A stretch of 23,996 nt of DNA from a virus (lineage: Duplodnaviria > Heunggongvirae > Uroviricota > Caudoviricetes), in the IMG/VR virus record IMGVR_UViG_2713896899_000017; one strand, written 5' to 3'. The notes below the pieces were generated by a model. That model worked only from the letters and a program-made list of their open reading frames with translations, ran no database searches and was not told where the DNA came from. The first letter of the stretch is position 1. The number at the start of each line of letters is the position of its first letter. Made by a program: the position numbers and the translations under genes. Shown here in pieces: positions 3,949-21,089 of this stretch.

Positions 3949-4802
3949 GCACCATCCTGAAATGGGCGGGAAATAAAACCGCCATTATGTCCGAACTGAA
4001 AAAACACCTTCCTGCTGGCCCGCGACTGGTTGAACCTTTCGCGGGTTCCTGTGCTGTGATGATGGAGACGGATTACCCCAGCTATCTGGTTGCGGATATT
4101 AATCCTGATTTAATCAACCTCTATAAAAAGGTTGCCGCTGATTGTGAATCGTTTATATCTCGCGCCAGAGTTTTATTTGAGATCGCAAACAGGGAGGTGG
4201 CTTATTACAACATAAGGCAGGAGTTTAATTACTCTACTGAAATTACTGATTTCATGAAAGCGGTATATTTCCTGTATCTCAATCGTCACGGTTACCGTGG
4301 TTTATGTCGCTATAACAAGAGCGGGCATTTCAACATTCCCTACGGTAATTATAAAAATCCGTATTTCCCTGAAAAAGAAATTCGCGCATTTGCAGAAAAA
4401 GCCCAGCGGGCAACGTTTATCTGCGCCAGCTTTGATGAAACGCTGGCGATGTTGAAGGCGGGGGATGTGGTGTATTGCGATCCGCCGTATGACGGCACGT
4501 TTTCCGGTTATCACACTGACGGCTTCACTGAAGATGACCAGTATCACCTGGCATCCGTTCTTGAACATCGGTCATCAGAAGGACATCCGGTCATTGTTTC
4601 TAACAGTGACACATCCCTGATCCGTTCGCTGTATCGCAATTTTACTCACCACTACATCAAGGCAAAACGCAACATCGGTGTGGCAGCTGGCGAGGGTAAA
4701 TCAGCAACAGAAATCATTGCTGTTTCCGGGCCGCGCTGCTGGGTGGGATTTGATTATTCGCGTGGCGTGGACAGTTCTGCCGTGTACGGAGTACGTGCAT
4801 GA
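3945..4802 (+). CDS. dam: DNA adenine methyltransferase (Dam-like N6-adenine MTase)
   Basis: [12 protein letters not shown]-terminus, FAGSCAV (AdoMet-binding FxGxG-like motif) and VYCDPPYDG (DPPY catalytic motif). GGAGGTG RBS; ATGA overlap with the upstream gene and with A. Confidence 0.85.
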
Positions 4803-7213
4803 GTCATGCCGATATGAACAACTGCTGCGGCTTTAACGAGGCTGCCGCAGCATTCTCATGGAACAGCCCGAAAAAGGCCATTAACCCTTATCTGGACCCG
4901 GCGGAAGTTGCGCCGGTTTCTGCGCTTTCAAACCTGATCACTCTGTACGCTGCCGATAACGAGCAGGAACAACTGCGCCGCGAGGCACTGAGTGATCAGG
5001 TCTGGGAGCGTTATTTCTTTAATGAATCCCGTGATCCTGTCCAGCGCGAAATGGAGCAGGATAAGCTAATTAGCCGGGCAAAGCTGGCGCATGAGCAGCA
5101 GCGTTTTAATCCAGACATGGTCATTCTGGCGGATGTCAACGCCCAGCCTTCCCATATCAGCAAGCCGCTGATGCAACGTATTAAATACTTCAGCAACCTG
5201 GGCAGGCCAAAGGCTTATTCCCGCTATTTGCGTGAGACGATTAAGCCATGCCTGGAACGACTGGAGCATGTACGCGACAGCCAGCTATCTGCATCTTTTC
5301 GTTTTATGGCAAGCCATGAAGGGCTGGACGGTCTGCTGATCCTGCCTGAAATGAGTCAGGATCAGGTGAAACGCCTGTCCACCCTTGTCGCTGCGCATAT
5401 GAGCATGTGTCTTGATGCCGCTTGTGGTGATTTGTACGCCTCCGATGATGTTAAGCCGGAAGAAATCCGCAAGACATGGGAAAAGGTGGCAGCAGAAACC
5501 CTGCGACTGGATGTCATACCGCCTGCGTTTGAGCAACTCCGCCGGAAAAGAAACCGCCGCAAACCTGTGCCCTATGAACTCATTCCGGGTTCGCTGGCGC
5601 GTATGCTGTGCGCCGACTGGTGGTATCGGAAATTATGGAAGATGCGTTGCGAATGGCGGGAAGAGCAGTTGCGTGCTGTCTGTCTGGTCAGCAAAAAAGC
5701 ATCTCCCTATGTCAGCTATGAAGCCGTGATGCATAAACGTGAGCAGCGCCGTAAGTCGCTGGAGTTTTTCCGTTCTCATGAACTGGTGAACGAAGACGGC
5801 GACACGCTGGACATGGAGGATGTGGTAAACGCCAGCAGCAGCAACCCTGCGCATCGCCGCAATGAGATGATGGCCTGTGTTAAAGGCCTGGAGCTTATCG
5901 CGGAAATGCGCGGTGACTGCGCCGTTTTCTACACCATCACCTGTCCGTCACGTTTCCATTCCACGCTAAATAACGGCAGGCCCAACCCGACCTGGACAAA
6001 TGCGACGGTAAGACAAAGCAGTGATTATCTGGTTGGCATGTTTGCTGCATTTCGTAAGGCGATGCACAAAGCCGGATTGCGCTGGTATGGCGTGCGGGTG
6101 GCTGAGCCGCATCATGACGGTACAGTTCACTGGCACCTGTTGTGTTTTATGCGCAAAAAAGATCGCCGCGCCATTACTGCTTTGTTGCGTAAGTTTGCCA
6201 TTCGTGAAGACCGCGAGGAGCTGGGGAATAACACGGGACCACGCTTTAAGTCTGAGTTGATTAACCCGCGCAAAGGAACGCCGACAAGCTACATCGCGAA
6301 ATATATCAGTAAGAACATTGACGGGCGTGGTCTGGCTGGCGAGATCAGCAAGGAAACGGGTAAATCCCTGCGTGATAACGCTGAATACGTGAATGCCTGG
6401 GCGTCTCTGCATCGTGTTCAGCAATTCCGCTTCTTTGGCATTCCGGGGCGTCAGGCTTACCGTGAACTGCGATTGCTGGCTGGTCAGGCGGCAAGGCAAC
6501 AGGGTGACAAAAAAGCAGGTGCGCCGGTACTGGATAACCCGCGGCTTGATGCAATCCTGGCTGCTGCTGATGCTGGTTGTTTTGCCACCTACATCATGAA
6601 GCAGGGCGGCGTACTGGTTCCCCGTAAATATCACCTCATCAGAACTGCTTATGAAATCAACGAAGAGCCGACCGCCTATGGCGATCACGGCATTCGTATT
6701 TATGGCATCTGGTCACCTATTGCAGAGGGCAAGATCTGCACTCATGCCGTGAAGTGGAAAATGGTTCGTAAGGCCGTTGACGTTCAGGAGGCGGCAGCCG
6801 ACCAGGGCGCTTGCGCCCCTTGGACTCGTGGCAATAACTGTCCCCTTGCTGAAAATTTGTACCAACAAGGGAAAGACAAATCAGCTGATGGAGATACCAG
6901 AACGGATATCACCCGCATGGATGACAAGGAGTTGCACGATTACCTGCACAGTATGAGCAAAAAAGAACGCCGGGAACTGGCAGCAAGGTTACGCCTGGTG
7001 AAACCGAAACGGCGTAAAGACTACAAACAGCGAATTACAGACCATCAGCGACTGCAGCTCGTGTATGAACTGAAGTCCAGGGGATTTGATGGCAGTGAGA
7101 AAGAGGTCGATTTACTGCTTCGCGGCGGCAGTATTCCGTCAGGAGCAGGCCTGCGTATCTTCTATCGGAACCAGCGTTTGCAGGAAGATGATAAGTGGCG
7201 GGATCTGTATTAA
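4799..7213 (+). CDS. A: Replication initiation endonuclease (P2 gpA-type rolling-circle initiator)
   Basis: 804-aa ORF with metal-binding [10 protein letters not shown] (HUH-like) and paired active-site tyrosines in YIAKYISKN, as in P2 A; follows the early genes as in P2/186. Confidence 0.85.
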
Positions 7214-7305
7214 TTACGCGGGTTAACAATTCGTGCTCTTAATAATACCAGGTATATCAGGCTGATGATCGTAAAAAAACGTTTTACATCAGTAAGATTA
7301 TTATA

Positions 7306-7325
7306 TACTGTAAATATAAACAGTG
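7306..7325. promoter_or_regulatory. LexA operator (SOS box) in front of the tum-like operon
   Basis: tACTGTaaatataaACAGtg has the CTGT-N8-ACAG LexA consensus with an AT-rich spacer; located about 40 nt upstream of the ATG at 7365. Confidence 0.75.
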
Positions 7326-7364
7326 GTTATGTATACAGTGTTACTTGGTGTCATAGGAGGAAAG

Positions 7365-7553
7365 ATGCAGGACTATTTTTTGGAGTCTTTGAAGCTCCAG
7401 CGCATTGATTTTTTTCTTAAGCTTGTAGCGGCTAGTGAGTGTAGTGATGAAGAGAAGGGGCTGGCCCTGCAGTGGGTTTCTGAACTGACAGATGAACTCA
7501 TGGCAAAAATCAGAACCCACGAATACAACCGCTCAATGGATGTCATCAGCTGA
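7365..7553 (+). CDS. Small SOS-controlled protein (62 aa), possible N-terminal Tum-like antirepressor part
   Basis: AGGAGG RBS at 7355-7360, ATG at 7365, directly downstream of the LexA box; sits where 186 tum lies (right of A). Function inferred from position only. Confidence 0.55.
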   Translation: MQDYFLESLKLQRIDFFLKLVAASECSDEEKGLALQWVSELTDELMAKIRTHEYNRSMDVIS

Positions 7554-7563
7554 GGTGACTTTT

Positions 7564-7797
7564 ATGCGCATTGAAATAATGATCGATAAAGAGCAGAAGA
7601 TTAGCCAGTCTACACTGGACGCCCTTGAATCCGAGCTTTACCGCAATCTGCGCCCCCTGTATCCCAAGACGGTAATTCGTATCCGCAAAGGTAGCTCTAA
7701 CGGTGTGGAACTGACCGGACTGCAACTGGACGAAGAAAGAAAACAAGTGATGAAAATTATGCAGAAGGTGTGGGAAGACGACAGCTGGCTGCATTAA
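7564..7797 (+). CDS. DinI-family protein (SOS regulator of RecA activity)
   Basis: MRIEIMIDKEQKISQSTLDALESELYRNL...KVWEDDSWLH resembles E. coli DinI (MRIEVTIAK...DALAGELSRR...ETWESADDWF). GAGGTGA RBS; immediately follows the previous ORF in another frame. Confidence 0.8.
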   Translation: MRIEIMIDKEQKISQSTLDALESELYRNLRPLYPKTVIRIRKGSSNGVELTGLQLDEERKQVMKIMQKVWEDDSWLH

Positions 7798-8067
7798 GAA
7801 ACGTTGCTGGCGTCTGAACTTGCTTCTGGCGTCAGCAAGGTTGAACAACGAGCTATGCGAGGCGTTAGTGTCAATTTGTTACCTTAACCACTATATATGC
7901 CAGGAAATTAACAGTTCTTAAGAAACCGCTTGCATGATCGAGCGCATTGAACTTAAGTTTAAGTAACGAAATCAACAGATGATATTGTTGTCTAAATTTT
8001 AAAGATAATCTGTTGAGGTTGTAGGCGTCGGAGTGTAGACTTCCGCGCCATGTTAAAAGGAGGAGTT

Positions 8068-8283
8068 ATGTCAAGCATCGCCGCATTTAGCCTGGGTAAC
8101 CCAGTTGAACGTCTGGCAAGGGTTCTTAAAGAGAACCAGGACAAACTCAATCTTAGTAAAGATGGTTTTGTGTCCGTAGACTTGTCTAACAAAAGAGCAA
8201 TGGATGCCATCAAGGCACAGATGGATAAGCTTGAAGGCATCAAAACGAGCACTGTAAAAGAGAAAACTAATAGAACCAGATAA
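8068..8283 (+). CDS. Small soluble protein (71 aa), first gene of a two-gene accessory operon
   Basis: Strong RBS AAGGAGGAG 3-4 nt before the ATG at 8068; no TM segment; stop overlaps the start of the next gene by 1 nt (TAATG). No recognisable family. Confidence 0.6.
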   Translation: MSSIAAFSLGNPVERLARVLKENQDKLNLSKDGFVSVDLSNKRAMDAIKAQMDKLEGIKTSTVKEKTNRTR

Positions 8284-9125
8284 TGGCAACATTACTTTTA
8301 GCAGTGATTTTGGTTAGTGGTTTTATTTATGTAAACCTATCACTTTCAACAAGATACCGATATAAGCGTTCCAACGGCTGGGACGCTTATTTTTTTGTGG
8401 CTGCCTGGGGTATCGTTTTTTTTCTCCTTGGCGGTTTTTTCACCTTTATTTTGAACGTCAGCGGAGGGTTTCGTTGGCTGGCGAATGCCTTGAATCTAAC
8501 ACCTGACAGTTTTAATGGCATGTTGTCTTCATCGAAAGACAAACTTCAAAGAATAAATGAAATCAAACAGATAGCATGGGTTATGATTTCAATTGTCCTC
8601 GCTGCGATTTCAGGTTTTGGAAATAAGTTACGCACATCACGTGGAGATCGTCGCTGGGATGCCTTAGCTAAAGCTGTGGGTAATAACGCTTTCGAATCAT
8701 TACTCATGGAAGCGTCCGCAAGACAGTTTCCGATCATAGCAACTCTGTCGTCTCGCAAAATCTATGTTGGTCTTGTTACTTGTCCGGCGTTAGAAAACGG
8801 GCTTTCAGAGCACCTTGAACTTCTCCCGATGTTAAGCGGATATCGGGATAAAGATGATCTAACGATTAGTATCACGACTAACTATCACCAACATTATCTT
8901 GATAGTGGTGTGATAAGTGGAATGTCTCGGCTTAATATCGAAGATTTCCGTGTGCTCATACCAAAAGATGAGGTTGAAACAATTTCGTTTTTTGATACTG
9001 AGACATATAACAAATTTAAAGAAAATGAAGCCAGGGATAGAAAGAACTGTCGAAAGATTGGTAGTAAAAGTGCATCTTCGCGCAGCAAGCGTGCAGCAGA
9101 TGCTGAGTCAAATGATCGTGCATGA
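8283..9125 (+). CDS. Membrane protein with three predicted TM helices and a roughly 165-aa soluble C-terminal domain ending in a basic tail; unknown function
   Basis: Hydrophobic segments TLLLAVILVSGFIYVNL, YFFVAAWGIVFFLLGGFFTFILNV and IAWVMISIVLAAISGFG; translationally coupled to the upstream small ORF; followed by a rho-independent terminator. Confidence 0.6.
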   Translation: MATLLLAVILVSGFIYVNLSLSTRYRYKRSNGWDAYFFVAAWGIVFFLLGGFFTFILNVSGGFRWLANALNLTPDSFNGMLSSSKDKLQRINEIKQIAWVMISIVLAAISGFGNKLRTSRGDRRWDALAKAVGNNAFESLLMEASARQFPIIATLSSRKIYVGLVTCPALENGLSEHLELLPMLSGYRDKDDLTISITTNYHQHYLDSGVISGMSRLNIEDFRVLIPKDEVETISFFDTETYNKFKENEARDRKNCRKIGSKSASSRSKRAADAESNDRA

Positions 9126-9173
9126 CTATGCTGCATGAGAACGCATGATCGTTTGAGGATCGTTTTTGCTAAG

Positions 9174-9197
9174 GCCCGCCAGAACTGGCGGGCTTTT
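9174..9197 (+). terminator. Rho-independent terminator of the two-gene operon
   Basis: GCCCGCCAG aa CTGGCGGGC perfect 9-bp GC-rich stem followed by TTTT. Confidence 0.75.
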
Positions 9198-9242
9198 GCG
9201 TAGATCATGCAACTGCATGAAAACCACTACATAAAGTGGGCA

Positions 9243-9261
9243 GGCGTGGCGGGGATACGAG
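9243..9261. other. Candidate cos (cohesive-end) site
   Basis: GGCGTGGCGGGGATACGAG: the first 13 nt match the P2/186 19-nt cohesive end as I remember it (P2 GGCGAGGCGGGGAAAGCAC, 186 GGCGTGGCGGGGAAAGCAT). Lies between A and Q, where cos sits in P2. Confidence 0.45.
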
Positions 9262-9328
9262 CGCGCGCAACGGGTTGTCATTCAAACTCCAATGCTATAA
9301 AACTGTGTAATACAAACAACTAAAGTAG

Positions 9329-11083
9329 GTGGCCTCAGTGGAACTGCAAGCAAATGCTCGAACCTTAACAAACGTGTTATCTGTAAATAAAAAATATATA
9401 GTCCCTAGATTCCAAAGAGAATATTCTTGGGGGAAGGAACAAGTAAGTGAACTTTGGCATGATATAGTTTCCAATATTCATTACCAGGAGGATGGGCAGT
9501 ATCAATATGATGAGTATTTCATCGGTGCTCTCGTTTTGGTCGGGCAGGAAACTAGCTCTGAGCTGATGATTGTAGATGGTCAACAACGTCTTACGACTCT
9601 TACTATATTGTTATCAGCATTATGTGATAAATTTAAGTTGATAAATGAGTTGGCTGTAGCTCAATCAATATATAATAATTATATATCTGGTATGGATGAC
9701 GATGGCAGACCTTTTTTTAAATTAGTTAATGAAACTCCTAAGCCATACTTTCAAAACAACATTCAGCATATTGATAAGAGAAATGAAGGACCGGAGTCCC
9801 TTGAAGAAAGAAACTTGCAATCTTCATATAATGATTTAACTGAGTATCTTTCAGAAGATAATCTTTGCCAGACATTAGGAGTAGATAGAGAGAAATTTAT
9901 CTACTTGGAAGCGTTGAAGGCTGTGCGGGATCAAGTTCTACGGTATCTGAAAGTGATTTATATTACAGTTAATGATGAAGATGAAGCTTATACAATCTTT
10001 GAAACTCTGAATGCTAGGGGATTAAACTTAAGTTATGTAGATCTTATAAAAAACAAATTATTTAAGAAACTGAATGGCACACATCCTGATGATGATGCAA
10101 AAACTAAATGGAATAAAATTAGGCAAATAATTGCTAGTCGTAATGGTGTCGGTTCTATCGAGACATTTATCCGTCATTGGTGGGTGTCAAAATATTCTTA
10201 TGTAAGTAGTGACACTCTTTATAAAGCTTTTCTGGATAAGTGGAAAAAAGGCGACATTGATGCTTCAGCGTTCATTGATGAGCTACTTTCAGATGCCGAG
10301 ATATATGTGAAAATATCATCGCCTACAGAACAGGATTTTCCTGAACTGGAAATGAAACCAGTTTATCGAGGTTTGCAGGCATTAAGGCTGTTTAACATAT
10401 CTCAGAATAAACCATTTTTGTTATCTTTATTTAAGGCAAGAGCAAGAGGAACGCTAAAACTTGTTGATATGAATAATGCAGTGCTGTCAATTGAACGCTT
10501 TCATTTTATGTTTAATGCTATTTGTTCATTGCGACCATCAGGTATTGAAAGTGCGTATGCTAAAGCTGCTAGGGCTTTAGTGGATGAAGGTTCTACTAAA
10601 GCTAGTAATAGACAAGTAATAAAGTCTTTGCTTGAAATGTTGGTGAAGAGAAAACCAGACATTAATATGTTTGTTGAAAAGTTTGTTATGCTTAAATTTT
10701 CAAATCAAGAGTTGAAAAATAAAAGGTTGATTCAGTACATTTTTAATAGACTTGAGTTACATCACATGAAAACGGGGGAGTATATGCCTGATTCATTAAC
10801 ATTAGAGCATATTCAGCCTCAGAGTGTGGGGGATTCTGAAGTATATAGCATGATAGGAAATTTATTACCACTTTCAAAAGAATTAAATGAAAAAGCTGGA
10901 AATAAGTCTGTTGTGGATAAGCTTGAAATTTATAAACAATCACAATATGCGCTAGTTAAAATTTTTATTGATGAATTTGAAAATAAATATCAAGGAGAAT
11001 GGACGCCCGATCATATGAGGTCAAGAGCTGCTGAACTAAGTATTTTATCGTATAATTCAGTATGGAAATTGGGGCGTGAGTAA
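9329..11083 (+). CDS. DUF262/DUF1524 two-domain protein (GmrSD-like type IV, modification-dependent restriction endonuclease family)
   Basis: N-terminal DUF262 signatures (PRFQREYSWG, IVDGQQRLTTL) and C-terminal His-Me/HNH-like region (LTLEHIQPQS ... NEKAGNKSVVDK). Strongly AT-rich. GTG start at 9329 per ORF track; an AGGTGG RBS favours the in-frame GTG at 9338. Confidence 0.7.
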   Translation: MASVELQANARTLTNVLSVNKKYIVPRFQREYSWGKEQVSELWHDIVSNIHYQEDGQYQYDEYFIGALVLVGQETSSELMIVDGQQRLTTLTILLSALCDKFKLINELAVAQSIYNNYISGMDDDGRPFFKLVNETPKPYFQNNIQHIDKRNEGPESLEERNLQSSYNDLTEYLSEDNLCQTLGVDREKFIYLEALKAVRDQVLRYLKVIYITVNDEDEAYTIFETLNARGLNLSYVDLIKNKLFKKLNGTHPDDDAKTKWNKIRQIIASRNGVGSIETFIRHWWVSKYSYVSSDTLYKAFLDKWKKGDIDASAFIDELLSDAEIYVKISSPTEQDFPELEMKPVYRGLQALRLFNISQNKPFLLSLFKARARGTLKLVDMNNAVLSIERFHFMFNAICSLRPSGIESAYAKAARALVDEGSTKASNRQVIKSLLEMLVKRKPDINMFVEKFVMLKFSNQELKNKRLIQYIFNRLELHHMKTGEYMPDSLTLEHIQPQSVGDSEVYSMIGNLLPLSKELNEKAGNKSVVDKLEIYKQSQYALVKIFIDEFENKYQGEWTPDHMRSRAAELSILSYNSVWKLGRE

Positions 11084-11110
11084 ATGCCGGGGGGGGGCCC
11101 AGCATATTTA

Positions 11111-12160
11111 TCAAAAAGAATCGTTTGTGAAATTTAGGGAGTAGGCATCAAAGCGTATTGCTTCTTCGCCTAGCCAATAGTTAAGTTCTTGTAGCTGTTT
11201 CTGCAGGGGCATCAGTTCGTTGCGGACAAAAACACGACTAGCCTTCTCCACATCACCAAAGCCCCCAACATTATTAGGCATTATCCCCATCATTTGCGGC
11301 GGCACACGGTGTGCCGCCATCATGTCGTCCCGGCTCACGTTCTTGATATTCAGAAACTCATCCTTCGCCGCGACTTCTGACAACGGGATAATCTGAAGCC
11401 CGTCCTTTTTGCCGTTAGGAGAGTACATAAACAGGTTGCGGAAGTTGCCTGGCCCTTTGGCACTTTTCATTGCATTGCGGAGGTTGTTCACATCCTCCTG
11501 GTTCTGCGCGGCATCGGTCATGTACATGATGAAGCCTGCATGACTGCCGTTAATATAATACTTCCGGCGGAACAGCGTGGCGGACTCGTTGAGCAGGGCT
11601 GATGGAATGGCAGAAAGATAACTTGGCAGGCCGTAGATCTCCTGGTTGATGTCCGGTTCCATCAGATGAAAAATGCTGCCTTTCGTGAACTGATACGGCT
11701 GGGTTGTCATACCGTATTGCACAAACCAGTAGGTATCCAGGTCTAACCCGCGTCGGGTGTATTTTGCCAGAGCAGGCTCAAGGGCGATAACTTCACCGAA
11801 GCGGTTCGTGCGTTTCTCCAGGTAGGCGTTACCAAATACCAGATAGTCCTGCACAAAACGTGAAAAAGCCTGCTGGCTGAGCAGCGGGTGAGGGATGTAG
11901 GTACTGGTCAGAATGTTGCATTTCACCGCAATTGGTGAGCTGTGATGCACGGCGGCGCGGAAGGTTCGTGCCAGTCCGTCAAAGCTGACGGGCGGCTCAT
12001 ACCAGCGGTCCATCTGTACGCATTCCACATAGTCCAGCAGTTCTCGGCGGTCCAGAACAGGAACGGGATCGCCGAAGCTGAATGCTTCGGCTGTAGTCTG
12101 GCTTTTAAGCTGGATCTGTTTCGTCGCCGCAGCGCGGTTCTTCTTACTCTTTCCCATCAA
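11111..12160 (-). CDS. Q: Portal protein (P2 gpQ family)
   Basis: 349 aa, convergent on cos/accessory region, ATGA-overlapped by P upstream; P2 Q-like sequence and position. Confidence 0.85.
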   Translation of the reverse strand: MMGKSKKNRAAATKQIQLKSQTTAEAFSFGDPVPVLDRRELLDYVECVQMDRWYEPPVSFDGLARTFRAAVHHSSPIAVKCNILTSTYIPHPLLSQQAFSRFVQDYLVFGNAYLEKRTNRFGEVIALEPALAKYTRRGLDLDTYWFVQYGMTTQPYQFTKGSIFHLMEPDINQEIYGLPSYLSAIPSALLNESATLFRRKYYINGSHAGFIMYMTDAAQNQEDVNNLRNAMKSAKGPGNFRNLFMYSPNGKKDGLQIIPLSEVAAKDEFLNIKNVSRDDMMAAHRVPPQMMGIMPNNVGGFGDVEKASRVFVRNELMPLQKQLQELNYWLGEEAIRFDAYSLNFTNDSF

Positions 12161-19040: not shown

Positions 19041-19434
19041 AGCAGTGCCTTATGTCCGTAATAACCCGGACAAACTGCATCTGTTTGTGGATAACGGTTC
19101 GCTGGTTGCCACGGGGGCCAGCTCCATGTCATGGGAGTACCGTTACACCCTGAACGTGGTGATTGAGGATTTCAGCGGCGACCAGAATCTGCTGATGGCC
19201 CCGGTTTTGCTGTGGCTGCGGGATAACCAGCCCGATGCCATCAATAACCCGGCGTTACGGGAAAAGCTATTCACCTTTGAGGTGGATATTCTGCGCAACG
19301 ATGTCTGTGATATCAGCCTTAACCTGCAACTGACGGAACGTCTGCTGGTCAGCACTGACGGCAGTGTGTCGAGCGTTGAAGCTGTAGCAGAACCTGATGA
19401 ACCTGAAGAAATGTGGACGGTGAAACGTGGCTGA
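19003..19434 (+). CDS. R: Tail completion protein R (P2 gpR family)
   Basis: GTG start at 19003 preceded by AGGAG; the N-terminus (NKPQSLRHALNKAVPYVRNNPDKLHLFVDNGSL) resembles P2 gpR. Confidence 0.8.
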   Translation: MNKPQSLRHALNKAVPYVRNNPDKLHLFVDNGSLVATGASSMSWEYRYTLNVVIEDFSGDQNLLMAPVLLWLRDNQPDAINNPALREKLFTFEVDILRNDVCDISLNLQLTERLLVSTDGSVSSVEAVAEPDEPEEMWTVKRG

Positions 19435-19879
19435 ACTGCAGAAAGTGGACGACTGGCTGAGTGCCTTGCTGGCGAATCTGGAACCAGCCGCCAGAAGCCG
19501 CATGATGCGCCAGCTGGCGCAGGAACTGCGCCGGACACAGCAGCAGAATATCAGGATGCAGCGCAACCCTGACGGCAGCAGCTATGAACCGCGACGGGTA
19601 ACAGCACGAAGTAAAAAAGGGCGCATCAAACGTCAGATGTTTGCAAAGCTGCGCACCACAAAATACCTGAAAACCGCCGCCAGCGCGGATTCTGCCAGCG
19701 TACAGTTTGAAGGTAAGGTGCAGCGCATTGCCCGCGTTCATCATTACGGCCTGCGCGATCGCGTCAGTCCAAAGGGGGGAGTCATTAAGTATCCATCCCG
19801 AAAATTGCTGGGTTTAAATGAACATACTGAAAATGAAGTAAGAGATTTACTTTTAAAGTATTTTTTGATGAAAAATTAG
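19427..19879 (+). CDS. S: Tail completion protein S (P2 gpS family)
   Basis: 150 aa, GTG start overlapping the R stop; position and length match P2 S. Confidence 0.75.
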   Translation: MAELQKVDDWLSALLANLEPAARSRMMRQLAQELRRTQQQNIRMQRNPDGSSYEPRRVTARSKKGRIKRQMFAKLRTTKYLKTAASADSASVQFEGKVQRIARVHHYGLRDRVSPKGGVIKYPSRKLLGLNEHTENEVRDLLLKYFLMKN

Positions 19880-19884
19880 AATGT

Positions 19885-20415
19885 TTACGCACTTAATAAA
19901 CTTAAATAACTTTTTATGCTTTGGCAAAAAGGGAAAAGGTCTATTTTAATTTTCCAGTTTTTTTTGTTTTGAACCCCAGAAGCAATAATAGAACCATCCC
20001 AATATTTTATTCCATTTTTGCCGGTCTTTTTTGTTAACTCAAAACTTAATGCGTGAATAATTTTGTTGCAGCATTCGCGTATAGAACCTTTAACATGACC
20101 ATCTATAACAAAAAGTATATTTTCATGTTCTTCAAATGCTTCTTTCTCAGGTGAGTAATCTGGGTTCCACTCATGTTCACTAGTGTCTTGGAGAATTCGT
20201 AGTTTTGTACAAAGGCTAATAAGATTGTTGCTAATGGTATATTCCAACCATCCGTTGTACGATAACTCCTCTATTTCAAATTCAGTTACTATAGAACCAT
20301 CATATACTTTCTGTGTGGAATATATACGCTGTAAATAAAATTCAGATGAACAGCATAATTGCTCAATTATTCTTGCGTGTTCTTCTATAGCGTAGTAATC
20401 AATTGGATGGCTCAT
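19885..20415 (-). CDS. AT-rich hypothetical protein (about 176 aa) encoded antisense between S and V (P2 orf30 position)
   Basis: Minus-strand ORF; the internal ATG at 20415 has an AAAGGTAAAAG-type RBS. Strongly AT-rich against a GC-richer backbone; no TM segment or recognisable motif. Confidence 0.6.
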   Translation of the reverse strand: MSHPIDYYAIEEHARIIEQLCCSSEFYLQRIYSTQKVYDGSIVTEFEIEELSYNGWLEYTISNNLISLCTKLRILQDTSEHEWNPDYSPEKEAFEEHENILFVIDGHVKGSIRECCNKIIHALSFELTKKTGKNGIKYWDGSIIASGVQNKKNWKIKIDLFPFCQSIKSYLSLLSA

Positions 20416-20446
20416 TCTTTTACCTTTCTTCGATTGGAATTGTATT

Positions 20447-20464
20447 TGTGTCATTTACCACACA
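20447..20464. promoter_or_regulatory. Ogr/Delta-type TGT-N12-ACA dyad upstream of V (putative late promoter PV)
   Basis: TGTgtcatttaccacACA in the intergenic region just upstream of V. Confidence 0.5.
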
Positions 20465-20510
20465 AGGACGTATTGATGCCATAGATTCAAGGTCCGTGCA
20501 ACCTAACCCT

Positions 20511-21089
20511 ATGAACGCACAACTAACCGAAATCATGCGCCTTATCACCAACCTGATCCGCACTGGGGTAGTCACCGAAGTGGACCGGGAGAACTGGCTT
20601 TGCCGGGTGAAAACGGGCGAGCTTGAAACCAACTGGATCAGCTGGCTGACGCTGCGTGCCGGGAATGCCCGGACATGGTGGCGACCATCGGAAGGTGAGC
20701 AGGTGGTGCTGCTGAGTCTGGGCGGCAATCTGGAAACCGCCTTTGCGTTGCCCGCCATCTATTCGAATCAGTTCGCGCCACCGTCGACGTCGGCGGACGC
20801 CTGCGTGACAGAACATCCTGACGGTGGCTGGTTTGAATACGAACCCGCCACCGGGCGCTGGTATGTCAGGGGCATCAAATCAATGGTCATTGAGGCCGCT
20901 GACAACATCACCATGAAAACCAGTGAGTTTGTACTGGAGGCTGACCGCACGCGTATTAATAGTGAAGTAGTGATCAATGGCGGCGTTACCCAGGGCGGCG
21001 GTGCGATGAGTTCTAACGGAATTGTGGTTGATGCACATCAGCATACTGGCGTCCTGAAAGGCGGCGACACAACCGGAGGCCCGGTATGA
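20511..21089 (+). CDS. V: Baseplate spike/assembly protein V (P2 gpV family)
   Basis: N-terminus MNAQLTEIMRLITNLIRTGVVTEVD resembles P2 gpV. Confidence 0.8.
   Translation: MNAQLTEIMRLITNLIRTGVVTEVDRENWLCRVKTGELETNWISWLTLRAGNARTWWRPSEGEQVVLLSLGGNLETAFALPAIYSNQFAPPSTSADACVTEHPDGGWFEYEPATGRWYVRGIKSMVIEAADNITMKTSEFVLEADRTRINSEVVINGGVTQGGGAMSSNGIVVDAHQHTGVLKGGDTTGGPV

Follow-up and report, generated by a model that had tools for sequence, protein, structure and literature searches.

An antisense accessory gene between tail genes S and V of a P2-like prophage, a candidate single-protein defence effector

A small, AT-rich gene lies antisense to the late genes of the P2-like prophage held in IMG/VR virus record IMGVR_UViG_2713896899_000017, a stretch of 23,996 nucleotides that was analysed in full (the window). 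This gene, referred to here as the cargo gene, occupies 19885-20415 on the minus strand, between the tail-completion gene S and the baseplate spike gene V, and encodes a protein of 176 amino acids (aa). It is real, conserved, mobile and dispensable for the phage, and both the slot in which it sits and the neighbourhoods of its homologs hold defence genes. As an object it is of an ordinary kind, an accessory gene (moron) at a site already known to vary among P2-like phages. The explanation favoured here, with a probability of roughly 0.4, is that it is a stand-alone gene for a single-protein effector of anti-phage or inter-element defence with HEPN-like chemistry; a role of any kind in defence or inter-element conflict is somewhat more probable than that.

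Reading frame and selection

A preliminary description, made from the letters of the sequence, had drawn attention to an AT-rich antisense open reading frame (ORF) of 176-189 aa amid the late genes, with its own ribosome-binding site and convergent with S, and the coordinates agree with it on each of these points. GC content is 0.28-0.36 over 19700-20450 compared with 0.55-0.61 in the flanks (300-bp windows), and the cargo gene itself has a GC of 0.326 and a third-position GC (GC3) of 0.266, the corresponding values for V being 0.573 and 0.648. The stop codon of the cargo gene (19885-19887) faces that of S, which ends at 19879, across a spacer of just 5 bp (19880-19884). At the other end, a Shine-Dalgarno sequence, GAAAGG (20428..20423, read from the minus strand), stands 7 nt before the ATG at 20415.

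This ATG is internal to a longer version of the frame, which begins at an in-frame ATG at 20454 and would yield 189 aa (19885-20454, minus strand). Comparison of the available sequences identifies the 176-aa form as the true one, since every homolog begins with MSHPI and has a length of about 176-181 aa, since RefSeq and the record of the related phage Cartapus both annotate the 176-aa form, and since the upstream ATG (20452-20454) falls inside the activator box of P_V, the late promoter of the V operon. The longer form, which the preliminary description had kept as an alternative, is probably a wrong annotation; it was the one originally given for Escherichia coli LF82. The Salmonella ortholog (L008 6001-6531) has a TTG start in place of the ATG, with the MSHPI N-terminus otherwise kept.

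By chance, DNA of such composition would keep 176 codons open with a probability of about 2e-6. Comparison of the cargo gene with its Salmonella ortholog gives a dN/dS of 0.09 at a dS of 1.6, and by this measure the family is under purifying selection. The conserved homologs and the low dN/dS together identify the cargo as a real gene. A T-rich direct repeat of 19 nt is also present in three copies at 19851-20035 (plus strand), with 77-100% identity and spacings of 99 and 67 bp, and is most likely compositional, derived from poly-A codon runs on the coding strand.

A replaceable module of 728 bp

A megablast comparison with phage genomes found one phage, Escherichia phage Cartapus, a P2-like prophage of E. 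coli LF82, that spans the whole region (96.8% identity), together with many close relatives that match in S and V only, the middle being absent. Alignment with Cartapus and with the empty-site phages 500465-1 and KP12 delimits an AT-rich module of 728 bp (19771-20498) consisting of the 3' tail of S, the antisense cargo gene and the P_V region. Homology to the empty-site phages ends at about 19771, inside S, and restarts at about 20498, 12 bp before the ATG of V. The left junction had been suspected inside the 3' end of S because roughly its last 30 codons appeared AT-rich, and the alignment bears out both the location and the composition: the last 36 codons of S (19771-19879, plus strand), a cassette-borne C-terminal variant, have a GC of 0.315 compared with 0.579 for the rest of the gene. 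The S domain is intact despite the swapped tail, the Pfam Phage_tail_S match spanning residues 3-146 of 150. Since the 728 bp stand in place of about 160 bp in the empty-site phages, the module is a replacement and not a simple insertion. The earlier view of an inserted segment is correct as to its foreign, AT-rich nature and has to be amended as to its mode of arrival, which was replacement by recombination between P2-like phages, with the segment carrying its own P_V box.

This box, a TGT-N12-ACA late-activator (Ogr-type) site at 20447-20464 (plus strand) with the sequence TGTGTCATTTACCACACA, was recognised by the pattern and by its fixed offset. It starts 64 bp before the ATG of V and overlaps the start codon of the 189-aa form. 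An empty-site phage has a TGT-N12-ACA box at the identical 64-bp offset, and the annotated activator site of P2 lies about 55 bp upstream of the annotated start of the V operon, a geometry close to that of the window. At the S-cargo junction no terminator-like site was found, the fold of 19850-19930 being no stabler than those of shuffled sequences (z = 0.92). The cassette was searched for a partner gene, an antitoxin ORF, an Rfam RNA and a repeat array, with none found, and it contains no other credible ORF besides the cargo gene.

The S/V slot across close relatives

The preliminary description had equated the position of the gene with the orf30 region of P2, regarded it as a variable cargo slot and proposed a comparison across P2-like prophages. 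The annotation of P2 agrees with this placement. In P2-like phages the orf30 region has been counted, with two others, as horizontally acquired (PMC3091744), and phage R18C carries a different ORF there (PMC6823313). The comparison was made on 80 IMG/VR contigs with a V protein 98-100% identical to that of the window, of which 78 could be scored, and revealed highly variable content. The slot is empty (159-160 bp) in 64/78 backbones and occupied in 14/78, by eight types of insert measuring 644, 728, 839, 942, 1138, 1305, 1511 and 1981/1983 bp. With 64 empty sites and eight alternative contents, the slot shows that the phage can do without the cargo gene and that its presence varies from one close relative to the next; none of these relatives has a conserved Orf30 orthologue of backbone-like composition in this place.

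All eight insert types share one architecture. Their GC is 0.33-0.36 and their main ORF is antisense to the late genes (8/8 in each case); every type has its own variant of the S tail and a different TGT-N12-ACA box, located at -51 to -53 from the right junction, and the start codon of the cargo lies about 20-35 bp from this box (eight types: L015, L041, L061, L070, L073, L088, L090 and L093). By itself the TGT-N12-ACA pattern is no commoner in the window than expected (6 against an expected 6.6), and the significance of the P_V box comes instead from its fixed offset in every cassette type: its presence at one position in 9/9 arrangements, that is, in the eight cassette types and the empty site, is not due to chance. 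As read from these alignments, cargo is exchanged by recombination between P2-like phages with S and V as homology arms, and the moving unit comprises the S tail, the antisense cargo and P_V.

Defence models recognise two of the alternative cargos, one being PDC-S59 (full length, 655 bits) and the other an ApeA-like HEPN protein, and one further cargo matches DUF6216. The remaining cargo types and P2 Orf30 gave no above-threshold match, and six of the eight types are without defence annotation. The ApeA-like cargo, found in L073 (1981 bp) and L074 (1983 bp), is divided into two ORFs, one of 195 aa that corresponds to the N-terminal portion of the ApeA model and one of 273 aa that corresponds to its C-terminal HEPN portion; it would be either a frameshifted pseudogene or a two-gene variant.

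Among 5426 complete E. coli genomes, 1035 have the V type and 22 carry the cassette (22/1035 of those with the V type), all 22 copies being chromosomal and 98.8-99.5% identical. The best matches in the same genomes reach only 97.6% for V and 99.5% for the cassette, so that the window itself probably does not derive from any of them. The available portions of the accounts of defence hotspots in these phages (Rousset et al. 2022; NAR 2026) place them between gpA and the portal gene, at Z/fun or 'within the tail genes', and close to int, and in those portions the S/V slot is not named explicitly.

Protein family and conserved motif

The cargo protein is orthologous to Cartapus gp14 (CARTA_14), also recorded as LF82_787 and WP_000019234.1, with the LF82 copy 98% identical. 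The exact protein is listed as 'MULTISPECIES: hypothetical protein [Enterobacteriaceae]' on 127 contigs and belongs to a 90%-identity cluster of 193 members; a literature search on WP_000019234 found no paper. The protein matches PHROG 18838 over its full length (E 2.2e-133, residues 1-189 on profile positions 1-189). Membership says nothing about function, since this PHROG is unannotated and, within the phage collection searched, Cartapus is the only phage with the protein. Orthology with P2 Orf30 was considered and ruled out (BLASTP E 0.28, 9/26 identities in the best segment).

Orthologs with 75% (Salmonella) and 60% (Enterobacter) identity are carried by P2-like prophages in the same slot and the same orientation, accompanied by the same 'IKYP-RKLLG' S tail and by a P_V box at -64/-65, on backbones that have themselves diverged (V 78-80% nucleotide identity). 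Occupation of the same slot in diverged backbones, together with the dN/dS value, points to a long-standing and selected occupant. Beyond these orthologs the family is large. A profile search of 1.84 billion representative proteins gave 468 clusters at E <= 1e-3, and a search of a 90%-identity database gave 1,829 clusters at E <= 0.1, some of them with members from archaea, clostridia and cyanobacteria. All proteins in the 1,829 clusters have about 170-210 aa, stand alone and lack any Pfam domain.

The family has a near-invariant motif, R-E-x-C-N-K-I-I-H-A, which in the cargo protein reads R113-E-C-C116-N117-K118-I-I-H121-A122, is encoded at 20050-20079 (minus strand) and forms a putative active-site helix. 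In an alignment of 76 diverse members, over which all column frequencies were taken, the motif residues are conserved as Arg113 (71/76), Glu114 (60/76), Cys116 (64/76), Asn117 (75/76), Lys118 (74/76) and His121 (75/76). Conservation outside the motif is seen at His3 (59/76, with Tyr in 11), Ser24 (57/76), Ser62 (56/76), Arg73 (75/76), Asp77 (67/76), Gly147 (74/76) and Trp154 (75/76). By its pattern of conservation, this set of polar residues appears typical of an enzyme active site. The same 76 members gave no relevant Pfam match, and sequence and profile searches of the PDB found nothing. The preliminary statement that the protein has no detectable motif is therefore accurate for database domains and inaccurate for the family, where a near-invariant motif exists.

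Predicted structure and likeness to HEPN

An AlphaFold2 model built from a 15-sequence alignment is confident, with a predicted local distance difference test (pLDDT) score of 90.1 and a predicted template modelling (pTM) score of 0.86. From the N-terminus it begins with two helices (7-34 and 45-78). An insert follows, made up of a short helix (89-95) and one strand (101-105), and then come the motif helix 112-120, closed by His121, a sheet of three strands (124-159) and a last helix (160-175). Foldseek searches of this model against the PDB and BFVD gave no significant match, the fold matches being marginal. The profile and structure searches that the preliminary description had proposed thus returned no database domain and, in the PDB and BFVD, no significant fold match.

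The hallmarks of HEPN proteins are a four-helix bundle with inserts after helix 2, an Rx4-6H motif that ends helix 3, a polar residue (N, D or H) directly after the Arg, and an acidic residue in helix 2, typically within Ex3[KR] (PMC3710099). Variation is on record, as the Parep1/8 family retains the His and has lost the Arg (PMC3710099). Judged from the model and the alignment, the cargo family has the N-x3-H register, and it may share the topology and an acidic residue near the end of helix 2. The polar residue that follows the position of the motif Arg is N117, four residues before H121 as in the RNxxxH register. The nearest conserved Arg, R113, is found one helical turn earlier, which gives R-x7-H, and R73 and D77 stand at the C-terminal end of helix 45-78 in the order R-x3-D and not E-x3-K/R. 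The protein may work like a HEPN ribonuclease with a rebuilt site, by analogy with these hallmarks.

Homologs outside P2-like phages

Closer homologs, defined as those with 33-45% identity to the cargo protein, are found in varied mobile and defence-related surroundings. The Aliivibrio homolog directly follows a Lit-type peptidase (PADLOC Lit, 1.9e-23), that of Vibrio anguillarum, on a plasmid rich in insertion sequences, directly follows a PD-T4-7 homolog (4.7e-29), and that of Pseudoalteromonas directly precedes a LmuB/GajA-like ATPase (4.5e-13). Homologs on metagenomic contigs adjoin an Abi_2 protein and DUF6338. Another metagenomic homolog lies in an island with AlpA, and one on a short contig is near a putative serine recombinase, recognised by its N-terminal sequence alone. 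The Aeromonas caviae homolog (L106 5001-5546, 40% identical) belongs to an integrated CTX-like filamentous prophage with Zot, RstB, Rep_trans and an integrase, so that the family rides on very different phage types.

A recognised defence gene is the immediate neighbour in about 4-5 of 13 sampled contexts, a share that by a rough estimate is well above background and that amounts to association, not proof. No partner gene is conserved across the contexts, and one more distant member is located in a toxin-antitoxin-rich region. Members of the family are carried by plasmids, by chromosomes, by a filamentous prophage and by archaea, all settings without P2 tails.

Transcription and promoter

Information on expression comes from RNA-seq data of E. 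coli LF82, and not of the window's own strain, for the 98% identical ortholog LF82_787/CARTA_14 (Misson et al. 2023, S1 Table; PMC9928086). The values are log2(5+fpkm), where fpkm denotes fragments per kilobase per million, for two replicates, and the conditions were inferred from the column codes BLB, B1, B6, MB1 and MB6 and from the table legend. According to this table, LF82_787 reaches 3.51 / 2.71 in overnight lysogeny broth (LB), 5.06 / 5.16 after 1 h and 5.89 / 5.97 after 6 h in Dulbecco's modified Eagle medium (DMEM), and 5.11 / 5.28 and 4.57 / 4.38 in macrophages at 1 h and 6 h, respectively. Over all conditions the flanking genes range from 2.32 to 3.58 (S) and from 2.37 to 4.34 (V), and CI is at about 5 in LB and at 8-9 elsewhere. 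The tabulated values suggest that LF82_787 has weak transcription of its own, with the late genes on either side practically silent. The expectation that the gene would be expressed in the lysogen independently of late transcription may hold for the LF82 ortholog in DMEM and macrophages, where the table has it weakly transcribed (log2 4.4-6.0, against 2.3-4.3 for S and V), although in overnight LB its values are at background.

In the parts of the same study that were available, the two morons assigned to Cartapus are genes other than LF82_787 (PMC9928086). One of them, LF82_789, was considered as the cargo gene and ruled out, being a different Cartapus gene in the main hotspot; LF82_P8 of Rousset et al. 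was likewise set aside as a related record, as it is an unrelated virulent phage.

A scan for the sigma-70 consensus found no site on the strand of the cargo gene. The weak candidate that can be proposed is a -10 hexamer, TACAAT (20444..20439, minus strand), with a weak -35 element, TTGTGT, at a 15-nt spacer; if real, this promoter would overlap the Ogr box and P_V on the opposite strand. The interval 20416-20510, suggested earlier as the place in which to map a cargo promoter, is mostly the P_V region, with the candidate -10 hexamer within it.

Proposed mechanism and its weighing against alternatives

According to the favoured explanation, a weak promoter of its own would supply the lysogen with a small amount of a helical-bundle enzyme. 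Its site would combine R113-E-x-C-N117-K118-x-x-H121 with His3 and with R73/D77, located where helix 2 ends, and would resemble that of a HEPN-type metal-independent ribonuclease, except that Cys would stand where the canonical site has its catalytic Arg. When a competing phage infects, the enzyme would become active, and the resulting cleavage of RNA would abort the infection. The antisense position may in addition silence the cargo during the prophage's own late phase, through occlusion at P_V and antisense read-through from S, as is suggested by a geometry in which the gene converges on S without a terminator and abuts an Ogr-activated promoter. A bolder version, which is doubtful, holds that the gene is the first phage-borne member of an unnamed, widespread group of single-protein defence enzymes, known from bacteria and archaea, with a HEPN-derived site in which Cys replaces the catalytic Arg, and S/V an overlooked third defence hotspot with built-in self-immunity; the fixed architecture of the slot would then make cargo expression and late transcription of the phage mutually exclusive. 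Of the three kinds of cargo considered in the preliminary description (defence, anti-defence and host-modulating), the first is the one to which the contents of the slot and of the neighbourhoods point.

Several observations weigh against a defence effector of HEPN type. The argument for a defence role of the gene itself is one of association. The protein has no match in Pfam, NCBIfam or PADLOC (PADLOC-DB v2.0.0, E up to 1), and the 76 family members gave just five scattered single-member PADLOC matches (E about 0.003-0.007). The Rx4-6H motif is absent as such, the residue five positions before H121 being Cys (64/76) and not Arg. In hhalign comparisons with one Abi_2 sequence and with a profile of 24 Abi_2 sequences, LRExCNKIIHA is aligned with LRELRNDIAH, with an upstream Arg in both, in an alignment that for the profile is insignificant (probability 0.5%, E 0.11), and a further hhalign comparison, between the family profile and the ApeA-like HEPN cargo, returned nothing. 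Some distant homologs have carbohydrate, metabolic or otherwise unremarkable neighbourhoods. Lastly, the tabulated level of LF82_787 in overnight LB is background and lies below the LB-based moron threshold of its authors. Because the hhalign comparisons with the ApeA-like cargo, the Abi_2 sequence and the Abi_2 profile are all insignificant, the family was not filed under HEPN; membership of the superfamily is not established by the comparisons made, and a specific HEPN-like ribonuclease mechanism is doubtful.

The alternative that survives best, although unlikely, is a moron with a purpose other than defence, either modulation of the host (stress, metabolism or virulence-related fitness) or counter-defence. 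The rise of the LF82 ortholog in cell-culture medium and macrophages but not in overnight LB, as tabulated, would fit host adaptation, some distant members are located among carbohydrate and housekeeping genes, and the lack of a match to any defence model is in keeping with it. However, the slot and the surroundings of the closer homologs are enriched in PDC-S59, ApeA-like, Lit, PD-T4-7 and Abi_2 proteins, the invariant polar constellation fits a catalytic effector better than a binding inhibitor, and a counter-defence gene would be expected early from a lytic promoter, not antisense within the late cluster.

A selfish toxin or addiction module, restrained by antisense transcription (as read-through from S or as an unannotated antisense RNA) and stabilising the cassette or the prophage in place of acting against phages, is less probable still. 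Convergence with S across 5 bp without a terminator would allow read-through from S antisense to the cargo, the motif is toxin-like as well as HEPN-like, and one distant homolog has toxin-antitoxin-rich surroundings. Against it, the cassette searches described above yielded no antitoxin ORF, Rfam RNA or repeat array; read-through from S cannot provide an antitoxin in the lysogen, where the late operons are silent according to the LF82 table, and homologs outside phages have no conserved convergent partner.

The mid-cluster position of the gene and its linkage to a matching C-terminal variant of S and to a P_V box would also be consistent with an accessory of the phage life cycle, acting for example in tail assembly or late-gene regulation in one lineage. 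This is very improbable, since the gene is missing from 64/78 phages with near-identical S and V, lies on the strand opposite all late genes and is, from the LF82 values, transcribed while those are silent, and has homologs on plasmids, chromosomes, a filamentous prophage and in archaea, none of them with P2 tails. Least probable of all is a hitch-hiker without function, whether decaying or neutral, in an AT-rich recombination patch, a reading that the selection analysis already speaks against. The unassigned function, the low tabulated transcription in LB and the want of a strong promoter might favour it. Against it stand the dN/dS and dS relative to the Salmonella ortholog, the full-length frame and near-invariant residues kept by the 193 members of the cluster and by about 1,800 related clusters, and the small chance of such an open frame.

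Layout of the prophage and its main hotspot

Genes of the window follow the order of a P2-like prophage. The integrase (1-1131), the CI repressor (1449-2024), gpA (4799-7213) and the portal gene (11111-12160) are succeeded by the lysis genes and then by R, S, V, W, J and I. S (19427-19879, plus strand; Pfam Phage_tail_S 6.8e-42) is the last gene of the upstream late operon, and V (20511-21089, plus strand; Pfam Phage_base_V 6.1e-18 and a GpV Apex motif) is the first of the next; the cargo gene between them is supported by the ORF list, PHROG 18838 and its homologs.

The main hotspot, between gpA and the portal gene (7214-11110, GC 0.31-0.44), holds a GmrSD-type type IV restriction enzyme at 9329-11083 (plus strand), with matches to Pfam GmrSD_N (1e-38) and GmrSD_C (1.2e-11) and to PADLOC HEC-06 (3.8e-90). 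Next to it, a 280-aa ORF at 8283-9125 (plus strand) has no Pfam or PADLOC match and is a candidate unannotated cargo.

Significance and comparison with known systems

Three aspects go beyond routine. The first is a large, unannotated family whose invariant motif looks, from the alignment, enzyme-like and similar to a HEPN site with Cys for Arg. The second is that the S/V slot is a bona fide cargo hotspot, with defence genes in sister phages, which is uncharacterised as such in the available portions of the hotspot literature. The third is the strikingly uniform architecture of the slot, antisense and abutting a promoter. Should the cargo prove to be a defence effector, it would be a compact single-gene system of 176 aa from a family of about 1,800 clusters that is unnamed in annotation resources, and the slot would be a source of more candidates, as six of its eight cargo types are unannotated for defence. 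The Cys-for-Arg motif would inform how HEPN-like active sites can be rebuilt, and the slot architecture would offer a simple model for how a prophage shields its lytic cycle from its own, potentially suicidal effector. Should it prove otherwise, the gene would be one more hypothetical moron, of no unusual kind, in a region already known to vary.

The nearest parallel in position is the orf30 region of P2, which is likewise framed by S and V, runs antisense to them and directly precedes an Ogr-activated P_V, and whose occupant is also non-essential, AT-rich and replaceable. However, P2 Orf30 has 261 aa and no sequence similarity to the cargo protein (E 0.28), and in P2 a putative terminator separates S from orf30, of which no counterpart was found in the window. 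The comparison with Orf30 is informative on position alone.

The nearest parallel in mechanism is provided by the HEPN Abi ribonucleases (Abi_2/AbiD-AbiF, ApeA and HepS of Gifsy-1), which are single-protein effectors borne by prophages or islands, a role that the cargo protein may share. Ribonuclease activity of the HEPN type is metal-independent and leaves 2',3'-cyclic phosphate ends. With HepS, one HEPN protein on its own suffices to sense an infection and to abort it, and in a sister phage the S/V slot itself is filled by an ApeA-like HEPN protein. Points of likeness are the predicted helical core, the x-N-x3-H at the end of a short helix and perhaps the acidic residue at the end of helix 2, as well as the Arg upstream of the Abi_2 motif 'RELRNDIAH', which is also found in the cargo family. 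Unlike these ribonucleases, the cargo family has Cys in place of the catalytic Arg and a three-stranded beta insert in the model between the motif helix and the last helix, and sequence and profile comparisons with them gave no significant match.

In its way of life the gene resembles the exclusion genes old, tin and fun(Z) of P2 and the cargo of the defence hotspots of P2-like phages, which, in the available portions of those accounts, are AT-rich, expressed in the lysogen, held in fixed slots and rapidly swapped among near-identical phages; the prophage of the window itself carries a GmrSD/HEC-06 gene in the gpA-portal hotspot. What distinguishes the S/V cargo from the hotspots so described is that it is a single small gene, always antisense and wedged against a late promoter.
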